DNA from: Bdellovibrionales bacterium
Lineage (GTDB): Bacteria > Bdellovibrionota > Bdellovibrionia > Bdellovibrionales > CAYMLA01
Direction: 5' to 3'
DNA length: 64,000 bases
NCBI GenBank assembly: GCA_965217115.1
Contig: OZ244239.1
Span: 1,472,001 to 1,536,000, forward strand
The notes beneath the pieces were generated by a model, which searched no databases, was not told where the DNA came from, and saw only the letters and a program-made list of their open reading frames with translations. This document shows positions 20,392-22,544 of the stretch, one piece after another; position 1 is the stretch's first letter; every line of letters begins with the position of its first letter. The translations under genes were made by a program, and so were the position numbers.

Positions 20392-20748
20392 CTAATCATC
20401 GCTCGTATTGAGGTCGACTGAATCTAGGTCATCAGCATCATCTGGTTCGACCTTGATAAGCCAGGACTCAGTAGGGTCATCAAAAATTGACTCAGGGCAT
20501 TCAAGGAGGACAGAGTTAACTTCTGCAATCACTCCGTTTACAGGACAGTATAGATCGAGAGGTCCTTCGTCGGTTTCGGCTTCTCCAAAAATCATTTCAG
20601 CTTCAATGGATTCGCCTTCCTGTGGAAGACGTAATTCAGAGACATTTGAAAATTCTTCTAGAGCATCTTCAGTGAGACCAATAGAGAGAAGCCCTTCGGA
20701 ATACTGAACCCATTGATGGGTAAGATAGGGTTGGATTTCGTCAGTCAT
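20392..20748 (-). CDS. GcvH-like protein lacking the lipoyl lysine
   Basis: HQWV, IGLTEDA, LPQEG, LYCPVNGVIAEVN, DDP...WLIKV give the GcvH fold, but ESVK is replaced by ETDE. Confidence 0.85.
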   Translation of the reverse strand: MTDEIQPYLTHQWVQYSEGLLSIGLTEDALEEFSNVSELRLPQEGESIEAEMIFGEAETDEGPLDLYCPVNGVIAEVNSVLLECPESIFDDPTESWLIKVEPDDADDLDSVDLNTSDD

Positions 20749-20765
20749 AATATTAAGCCTTTTAA

Positions 20766-22178
20766 TTAAATATCGTAATAAAGTTCAAATTCAAACGGAG
20801 AGGGTCTTAGTTGTAGCTGAAGAACCTCGTTCTCTAACTTATAATCATGCCACGCAGATAAGAGGTCATCAGAGAAAACATCTCCCTTTCGTAAAAATTC
20901 ACTGGATTCATTAAGGCACTTTAAAGATTCTTCAAGAGTCGCTGGAACTGAAGGGACTTGGGCTGCTTCTTGGGGGCTTAATCCGTAGATATCTTTGTCT
21001 AAAGGGTCTCCGGGGTGGATTTTATTTTCGACTCCATCGAGACCAGCCATTAACATTGCAGCAAAGGCGAGATAAATATTGCAGCTAGCATCAGGAGTTC
21101 GAAACTCTATTCTTTTTGCTGCAGGGTTGCTGCCGCTGTTAGGAATACGTACGGCGGCGGAACGATTTTTAAAACTATAGGCTAATTTTACAGGAGCTTC
21201 GAATCCAGGAACTAGGCGTTTGTAAGAGTTCGTTGTTGGATTTGTGAGAGAGCACAAAGTGGGAGCGTGTTTTAATATGCCACCAATAAAATAAAGAGCT
21301 GTCTCGGAAAGGCCTGCATATTTTTCTCCAGAAAAAAGAGGTTTGCCATCTTTCCATAAAGACATATGAGTGTGCATTCCAGAGCCATTATCGCCAAAAA
21401 TCGGTTTTGGCATAAAAGTGGCGGTCTTTCCATTGCGACGAGCGACATTTTTGACAACATATTTGAACCACATGGTGTTATCTGCACTGGCGAGAGCCTC
21501 GGCGAATTTATAATTAATTTCTCCTTGAGCTGGTGCTACTTCATGGTGGTGCCTCTCAACTTCGATACCGAGGTTTTCTAGTTCCAAGCAAATTTCAGAA
21601 CGTATATCTTGATGGGAATCAGTGGGCATCGCTGGGAAGTAACCTTGTTTTTGACGGGGTTTGAAACCTAGGTTTCCTCCGAGTTCTTCCCGTCCGGTGT
21701 TCCAGTTAGCTTCTTGAGAGTCGACTTGGTAGAAGGACCCCCCTGAGGAAGTTTCGTAGCGAATATCATCAAAAATAAAAAATTCAGCTTCAGGTCCGAA
21801 ATAAGCAGCGTCGGCGATACCGCTGGATTTTAAGTAAGCAAGGGCTTTTTTTATGACTTGTCTGGGGTCCCTTTCGTAGGGGGCTCCAGTTCCGGGGAGA
21901 AGAACATCACAGATAAGAGAAAGTGTGGGAACTTCCATAAATGGGTCCATCTTGGCGGTAGAAGGGTCAGGCATCATAACCATGTCAGACTCCTGAATGC
22001 CGCGCCACCCTCTGATAGAGCTACCGTCAAATCCAAGTCCCTCGTCAAAGAGGCTTTCACTGAGAGTGTGAGCTGGGACTGTCAGGTGTTGCCAGACCCC
22101 CATGAGGTCGACAAACTTCATATTAACCATTATCGCTTCACTCTCTTTTGCAAATTCAATAACTTTTTTAGGGGTCAT
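20766..22178 (-). CDS. glnA: Glutamine synthetase type I (GSI-beta)
   Basis: FDGSSI, GPEAEFF, HHEVA, FMPKP...NGSGMH, NSYKRL and RIEFR motifs; adenylylation Tyr retained (DKDIY). Confidence 0.97.
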
Positions 22179-22205
22179 ACGAGTCTCCTATTTTTATATT
22201 TTGGA

Positions 22206-22544
22206 TTAAAGAGCATTGTCATCTTTCTCTCCTGTGCGCACACGGACAGCTTGTTCTATGGGAAGAACAAAGATTTTACCATCTCCAATTTTACCTGTTC
22301 GGGCGGATTGTTCTATGGTGGAAATGGCTGTATCGACAAGAACATCGTTGAGAACGATCTCAATTTTAACCTTGGGAAGAAAGTCGACGACATATTCAGC
22401 CCCTTTGTAGATTTCAGTTCGCCCTTTTTGGCGACCAAACCCTCGTATTTCTGTGACAGAGACTCCTTCGACACCAATCTCAGCTAGAGCATCTATGACA
22501 TCGTCTAATTTGAAGGGTTTAATAATAGCTTCAATTTTCTTCAT
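22206..22544 (-). CDS. glnB: Nitrogen regulatory protein P-II
   Basis: [21 protein letters not shown] (Tyr51) and [10 protein letters not shown] motifs. Confidence 0.96.

Follow-up and report, generated by a model that had tools for sequence, protein, structure and literature searches.

A highly acidic H-protein paralogue without the lipoyl-lysine, encoded after glnB-glnA in a Bdellovibrionales bacterium

The gene described here lies directly after glnB-glnA of a Bdellovibrionales bacterium and codes for a paralogue of the glycine cleavage H-protein (GcvH) that has lost the lipoate-carrying lysine. It will be called H-like. It was found in a stretch of 64,000 nucleotides (C1:1472001-1536000; this whole stretch is referred to as the window) of a genome of 2.17 Mb that is assembled as one contig. 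Sequence comparison and structure prediction support the assignment of H-like as a non-carrier paralogue of H-protein, with a loop that is unable to be lipoylated at the canonical site. The function of such a protein can be approached through its distribution, its neighbours and its likeness to better-known systems; our preferred, tentative reading is that it acts as a pseudo-carrier on the partners of the true H-protein.

The locus

The following features of the window are relevant to H-like, with positions counted from the first nucleotide of the window:

20392-20748, minus strand: H-like, a very acidic GcvH paralogue of 118 amino acids without the lipoyl-lysine (open reading frame, or ORF; Pfam GCV_H; AlphaFold2 model; Foldseek)
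20749-20765, minus strand: spacer of 17 bp between glnA and H-like, with an AAAGG ribosome-binding-like site (sequence)
20766-22178, minus strand: glnA, type I glutamine synthetase (TIGR00653, 657.6 bits, cut-off 429)
22206-22544, minus strand: glnB, PII protein (Pfam P-II, 108.4 bits)
22704-23162, plus strand: SpoU-family methyltransferase, divergent from glnB, a conserved synteny anchor (Pfam SpoU_methylase, 117 bits)
23232-25919, plus strand: secA-like ORF, the second synteny anchor (the domain scan refers to counterpart ORFs of related loci, which carry SecA domains)
39850-42312, minus strand: ORF with GlnE domains (domain scan)

The ATG of H-like follows the stop codon of glnA by 17 bp, exactly as the first-pass annotation of this DNA had it, and AAAGG stands about 9 nt before the ATG. 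A consensus scan of the minus strand between positions 20200 and 22800 found no terminator-like site, either between the genes or after H-like. Because the gap is short and no terminator is predicted, H-like is probably co-transcribed from the glnB-glnA promoter. The genes that flank it directly are glnA and a lipoprotein ORF, and the SpoU-family methyltransferase adjoins the H-like locus in most related loci.

The first-pass annotation had also described PII as keeping Tyr51 and glutamine synthetase (GS) as keeping its adenylylation tyrosine, and had placed glnE in the window; these statements agree with our results. Tyr51 is present in the PII sequence, and glnB is the sole PII-family match in the whole genome. 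The GS is 55% identical to E. coli GlnA and retains the tyrosine aligned with that of DKNLYDLP, which we take to be the adenylylation site of the E. coli enzyme. GlnE domains are found in the ORF at 39850-42312. A second GS-family ORF, of 463 amino acids (Gln-synt_C, 323 bits), is located outside the window at G000:C1:1391283-1392299, about 100 kb from glnA.

An H-protein fold without the lipoyl-lysine

H-like matches the Pfam family GCV_H (PF01597) with 66.6 bits, against a cut-off of 22.2. Its AlphaFold2 model, built on 28 relatives, has a mean pLDDT of 85, and the best PDB match of this model in Foldseek is the Thermus H-protein (1onl, TMq 0.84); a search of the ESM Atlas returned GcvH-family clusters only. 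The GcvH fold that had been proposed from the sequence at first pass is confirmed by both the family match and the model. H-like is 28-31% identical to solved H-proteins and has fold, length and acidity in common with them, as well as the motifs HxW, LPxxG, Y-x-P-V-x-G, E-x-N and DP..GWL. It is unlike GcvH in that it lacks the lipoyl-lysine, scores below the NCBIfam cut-offs (63.8 vs 115.85 bits for the equivalog TIGR00527, and 68.4 vs 117 bits for the subfamily NF002270), is not encoded beside gcvT or gcvP, coexists with a canonical GcvH, and is missing the C-terminal helix of the PEYKKL type that is seen in the canonical GcvH sequences of the order.

In phmmer alignments with solved H-proteins, the lipoyl hairpin ESVKA pairs with ETDEG of H-like, and the lysine is replaced by glutamate; the alignment with E. 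coli GcvH agrees. The reading of VESVKA as AETDEG, made earlier from the letters of the sequence, is thus borne out by comparison with known structures. So are the extreme acidity of the protein and the position of its single lysine, which sits in WLIKV: there are 32 Asp/Glu and 2 Lys/Arg, giving a net charge of about -30 over 118 residues. The canonical GcvH of the same genome is also acidic, with 27 Asp/Glu and 9 Lys/Arg.

Neither gcvT nor gcvP is found in the window, as had been pointed out before. A gcvT-gcvH pair with the canonical hairpin IESVKA (the canonical pair scores 137.6 bits) is located at C1:1629-1631 kb, and gcvP at C1:930 kb, both outside the window. H-like is not the H-protein partner of GcvT and GcvP in this genome; the canonical set is encoded elsewhere.

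Distribution and phylogeny of the lysine-less clade

The genome was compared with 40 relatives, giving a set of 41 genomes. Many of these show two GcvH-family matches: a full-length one at about 40% identity, and one at about 35% that is canonical in type. In 29 of the 41 genomes the protein of the full-length type is lysine-less (for one of them, G025, this relies on Pfam and tblastn matches, its sequence not having been read); a further genome, G003, has just a weak match of 104 amino acids, and 11 have the canonical type alone. In alignment A1, which has 28 rows, Lys or Arg does not occur at the lipoyl position in a single row; the residue is Asp or Glu in 22 rows and Ser, Asn, Gln or Gly in six. 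Reading frames are intact in all 28 aligned members, and no frameshifts or stops were seen in them. The idea of a non-carrier H-protein, put forward for one sequence at first pass, extends in this way to the orthologues, and recent decay, with orthologues that keep the lysine, is not what they show. The loop E-T-[DE]-[DE]-G-P is found in most rows of A1 and is invariant among the closer members (alignment A2).

When 301 genomes of the phylum were searched with a profile made from A1, full-length matches, at 117-170 bits, came from 60 of the 68 genomes of the same order and from one genome of the same class. Canonical-type matches to this profile reach at most 113 bits and begin at profile position 9; the gap in bit score between the two classes is small, and they are separated more clearly by coverage and by the sequences themselves. 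In an IQ-TREE phylogeny of 161 rows (a quick search with many forks open, from which one duplicate locus was excluded, as were database representatives outside the range of 100-160 amino acids), all 26 H-like rows of Bdellovibrionales fall into one clade of 52 rows, every one of them lysine-less, with SH-aLRT support of 97. The canonical GcvH proteins of Bdellovibrionales are placed outside this clade. For ten orthologue pairs, dN ranges from 0.05 to 0.35; dS is saturated and not computable in nine of the ten, and the one computable ratio is 0.044. Judged by these sequence comparisons, the H-like clade is old, vertically inherited, order-wide and well conserved. Strains of Bdellovibrio bacteriovorus are among the genomes that carry the family.

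Several orthologues have poly-Asp/Glu tails of 20-60 residues, which H-like of this genome does not have. A shorter and more divergent lysine-less form of 104 amino acids, with the acidic tail absent, occurs in family f3 (L045:1676-1990, L046:6257-6571 and L147:3936-4250), where it comes after glnA, the two genes being separated by about 270 bp or by a convergent insert.

Loss of the lipoyl-lysine is common in the GcvH family at large: it is missing from 52 of the 152 database proteins that were aligned to H-like. Sixteen lysine-less rows stand outside the main lysine-less clade in the tree, and the loss therefore appears to be recurrent. Second GcvH paralogues are also seen in other orders of the phylum (L135, L136 and L139 of genomes G317, G062 and G131, and L134 and L138 of genomes G125 and G280). 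One group of them keeps the lysine at the aligned lipoyl position (E-G-E-K-Q) and the other has Asn or Glu. As a hint to function, the paralogues L134-L139 were discarded, their neighbours being unrelated (IMPDH, radical-SAM, peptidases, asparaginase). A literature search, the coverage of which excluded subscription journals and supplements, found no description of a lysine-less GcvH paralogue in Bdellovibrio or of its link to glnA.

Linkage to glnB-glnA

The related loci have a conserved block, in which genes for SecA, a SpoU-type methyltransferase and a GGACT-family protein diverge from glnB-glnA-H-like. This looks like the ancestral arrangement of the order. In several genomes the H-like block is followed by a convergent SpoVR-DUF444 operon.

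In 22 of the 41 genomes glnA and glnB were both found, always together. H-like is present in 15 of these 22, represented by a weak match in one and not found in six. The 19 genomes in which glnA and glnB were not found include 14 with H-like, none with a weak match and five in which it was not found; in the 14, two of which are only 77% and 83% complete, H-like stays at the same locus. Among the 15 genomes that have both glnBA and H-like, nine have H-like about 20-270 bp after glnA, two have insertions of about 0.9 and 2.5 kb between the two genes, and four, which are all four genomes of family f4, have them on different contigs. In family f2, which has glnBA and no H-like, the convergent operon comes directly after glnA. 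The other lineages without H-like are g9, g16, g17 and g30.

Further loci were collected with the pattern ETD[DE]GP[LI][DN][LI] and a 9-row alignment; the best 80 of 88 confirmed loci, from 134 pattern matches, were kept, and this set is biased to members with that form of the loop. In these 80 loci glnA is immediately upstream of H-like in 36, about 1 kb away in one and absent in 36, and the flank is too short in seven. Nearly all of the 36 glnA-less loci have GGACT-SpoU directly upstream.

Some loci seem to have kept traces of change at this site. Locus L102, which is among these 36, has, directly upstream of H-like, a fragment of 56 residues that corresponds to GlnA residues 415-470 (50% identity; L102:3296-3463), and no other glnB-glnA; by its sequence the fragment looks like a relic of glnB-glnA deletion. 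At loci L072, L087 and L104, glnA is followed by H-like and there is no room for glnB between GGACT and glnA, so that, at the level of the locus, PII is lost and type I GS (GSI) kept. In five near-complete genomes that lack glnA, no match to the PII family turned up. Each of these genomes has an unlinked ORF of about 745-780 amino acids with a GS catalytic domain (for example, G009:C18:105850-106326 and G021:C1:1713971-1714432), which to judge from its sequence is probably a type III GS. This suggests that GSI and PII were replaced in the glnA/glnB-less lineages. Given the unlinked GS-domain ORF, these lineages are rightly described as lacking GSI and PII, and wrongly as lacking GS.

The first-pass annotation had singled out the linkage to glnA as something that should be conserved. 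It is frequent and probably ancestral (nine of 15 relatives with both genes, and 36 of 80 loci), and to this extent the expectation stands; it is not obligate, given that 14 of 19 relatives without glnA and glnB keep H-like. Because the gene is kept without glnA and glnB or without PII, and because six glnBA-bearing genomes do not have it, H-like is neither required by GSI or PII nor dependent on them.

Other neighbours and upstream regions

Downstream of H-like the neighbours vary. Within the first two downstream ORFs of the 80 loci, there is an EamA-family transporter in 42, often 1-14 bp away and on the same strand, a GNAT acetyltransferase in 15 and a DAO-family amine oxidase in eight. The genome studied here has no match to GGACT, and tblastn (E<=1e-3) found in it no match to EamA, GNAT, DAO or a 167-aa ORF that was searched along with them. 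As candidates for obligate partners all five are therefore rejected. The partner of H-like, if there is one, must be present in this reduced genome and in all other genomes that bear H-like.

With a crude regular expression, no sigma-54-type promoter was found upstream of glnB in the window or upstream of H-like in 24 glnBA-less loci, and no operator common to the glnB-upstream and H-like-upstream regions was found. An inverted repeat of the type (G)CGCAA-N10-TTGCG is seen 100-180 bp before the start of H-like in about 20 glnBA-less loci (among them L110, L114, L119 and L125), where it sits in the divergent GGACT/H-like intergenic region. Neither the window nor the region upstream of glnB in any of the glnBA-bearing loci showed this palindrome.

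H-protein-like proteins outside glycine cleavage

In Streptococcus pyogenes and Staphylococcus aureus, GcvH-L carries lipoic acid, and its gene accompanies those for a sirtuin, a macrodomain protein and LplA2. It resembles H-like as a divergent further paralogue of the H-protein whose role lies outside glycine cleavage, and the H-like model matches its structure (PDB 5a35) in Foldseek with E 3.7e-6 and TMq 0.76, at 12% identity. H-like differs from it in lacking the lysine, and neither of its flanking genes is of the sirtuin, macrodomain or LplA2 kind. Two further families are likewise H-protein-like and outside glycine cleavage, the chlamydial not_gcvH (TIGR03077) and a GcvH-related protein of Desulfobacterota (NF045810). 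H-like is not a member of either, scoring 23.4 vs 144.05 bits and 17.9 vs 150 bits, respectively. It is an acidic barrel that stands alone, and its hosts are aerobic predators.

Possible functions of H-like

The H-protein of glycine cleavage has as its partners the P-, T- and L-proteins and the lipoyl-transfer enzymes. This genome encodes two proteins of the BPL/LplA/LipB family. The reading that we rank first, while holding it as tentative, builds on the description given above and on analogy with plant BADC: H-like may be a competitive or regulatory pseudo-carrier that acts on these partners. A non-catalytic protein of this sort would retain, in exaggerated form, the acidic docking face of H-protein, and with this face it would bind a partner with a basic surface, be it one of the P-, T- and L-proteins or an enzyme of lipoyl transfer. 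In so doing it would compete with the real H-protein or regulate it, as lysine-less BADC does with respect to BCCP in plant acetyl-CoA carboxylase. H-like would work without GS or PII, with something universal in these genomes as its partner; where glnBA is kept, its effect would be tied to nitrogen status. The role of a decoy for GcvT or GcvP, which had been suggested at first pass, is possible.

The docking face can be followed in part at the level of single residues. One preprint (10.64898/2026.10.01.755906) reports that the surface which GcvH proteins turn towards lipoate ligase, whose own face is basic, is predominantly acidic, and it gives Asp43, Glu46, Glu61, Asp68 and Asp86 as the acidic ligase-contact residues of EcGcvH. 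In alignment A4, most H-like rows have an acidic residue at the positions of Glu61 and of Asp86, and most have Asp or Asn at that of Asp68. This comparison suggests that the docking face is partly kept in H-like and is more acidic overall.

BADC, from the plastid acetyl-CoA carboxylase of plants, is the nearest mechanistic parallel that we have considered. According to PMC12706156, BADC is a non-biotinylated homologue of BCCP that associates with biotin carboxylase, and Arabidopsis PII interacts with both BADC and BCCP. As with H-like, a paralogue of a carrier has dispensed with the modified lysine and coexists with the true carrier. The association with the partner enzyme of the carrier and the binding by PII, which that source gives for BADC, are only proposed for H-like. 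BADC also has a different fold, the biotinyl domain, which is distantly related to the H-protein fold (weak Foldseek matches), and it belongs to another pathway and another kingdom; the parallel is an analogy of mechanism, not homology.

Several observations weigh against the pseudo-carrier role. All 11 relatives without H-like have a canonical gcvH, and H-like is therefore not needed for glycine cleavage. Two genomes that keep H-like and gcvP, G012 (98% complete) and G029 (83%), yielded neither gcvT nor a canonical gcvH; these are draft assemblies of 70 and 50 contigs, and the missing genes are not taken as lost. The most divergent rows (L029, L031, L032 and L045) depart from the E-T-[DE]-[DE]-G-P loop. 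The equivalents of Asp43 and Glu46 vary in A4, and the ligase-contact surface is conserved only in part. The poly-Asp/Glu tails of some members, though not of the one in this genome, hint at a charge-driven role that has nothing to do with H-protein partners. Finally, the tie of H-like to glycine cleavage is drawn from homology and elimination only.

The second place in our ranking goes to just such a charge-driven role, which is possible, if doubtful. Here the GcvH barrel would serve, apart from any H-protein partner, as an acidic binding scaffold. It could chaperone basic proteins or soak them up, mimic nucleic acid, or regulate, from the cytoplasm, the EamA transporter that is often encoded after it. 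The net charge of about -30 on 118 residues, the long acidic tails of several orthologues and the closeness of EamA in 42 of 80 loci all point this way. On the other side, this genome has no EamA of that type and its H-like has no poly-acidic tail, canonical H-proteins are acidic too, as the one encoded here illustrates, and among the neighbours seen in the scanned loci none had to do with DNA, nucleases or restriction.

Third comes the proposal closest to the first-pass annotation, that H-like, by binding PII or GS, serves as an accessory in nitrogen control, in the way that PII binds BCCP and lysine-less BADC. We consider it unlikely. It would account for the position of the gene as the last after glnB-glnA, with a gap of 17 bp, and for its adjacency to glnA, seen in nine of the 15 relatives that have the two genes and in 36 of the 80 further loci; H-like is very acidic and the T-loop sequence of PII is basic here; and the interaction of Arabidopsis PII with BADC and BCCP (PMC12706156) offers a precedent. 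A role that needs GS or PII is not supported by the phyletic evidence. Of the 19 relatives without glnA and glnB, 14 keep the gene, as do the five near-complete genomes that have no PII-family match and just the unlinked GS-domain ORF of about 745 amino acids; loci L072, L087 and L104 combine glnA and H-like with no glnB; H-like and glnA are on different contigs in all four f4 genomes; and six relatives with glnBA have no H-like.

Less probable again is an elaborate combination of the pseudo-carrier role with nitrogen control. H-like would then be an 'anti-H-protein' of Bdellovibrionales, a lysine-less pseudo-carrier that throttles glycine-cleavage or lipoyl-transfer enzymes. Ancestrally expressed from the glnB-glnA operon and perhaps bound by its products, it would link nitrogen status with the ammonia released from glycine and with one-carbon flux, like the PII-BADC-BCCP circuit of plants, and the coupling to PII would have been lost later, where a type III-like GS replaced GSI and PII.

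It is improbable that H-like carries another group on a different residue of the conserved loop, such as the threonine or an acidic side chain. The invariance of E-T-[DE]-[DE]-G-P among the closer members and the GNAT acetyltransferase within two downstream ORFs in 15 of 80 loci would fit such a carrier; the loop nevertheless varies in divergent members, this genome has no homologue of that GNAT, and no modifying enzyme is consistently linked to H-like. A functionless gcvH duplicate, decaying or recently inactivated, could explain the loss of the essential lysine and the scores under the NCBIfam equivalog cut-offs, yet it can hardly be reconciled with an order-wide clade in which 28 of 28 aligned members are lysine-less with intact frames, with dN far under saturated dS, and with a confident structural model (pLDDT 85).

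Implications for annotation and for Bdellovibrionales

One member of the clade is named 'glycine cleavage system protein H' in NCBI. Taken as a description of function, this name is incorrect for H-like proteins, which are unable to carry lipoate; the survey of database proteins shows that the loss of the lipoyl-lysine is a common event in the GcvH family. The occurrence of the H-like family in the model predator Bdellovibrio bacteriovorus makes knock-out and pull-down experiments feasible. Should the competitive pseudo-carrier role prove true, H-like would show that bacteria, too, use a dead carrier protein for regulation, a mode which has so far been documented for BADC of plants, and it would add a control point on glycine and one-carbon metabolism in bacteria that live on the amino acids of their prey.

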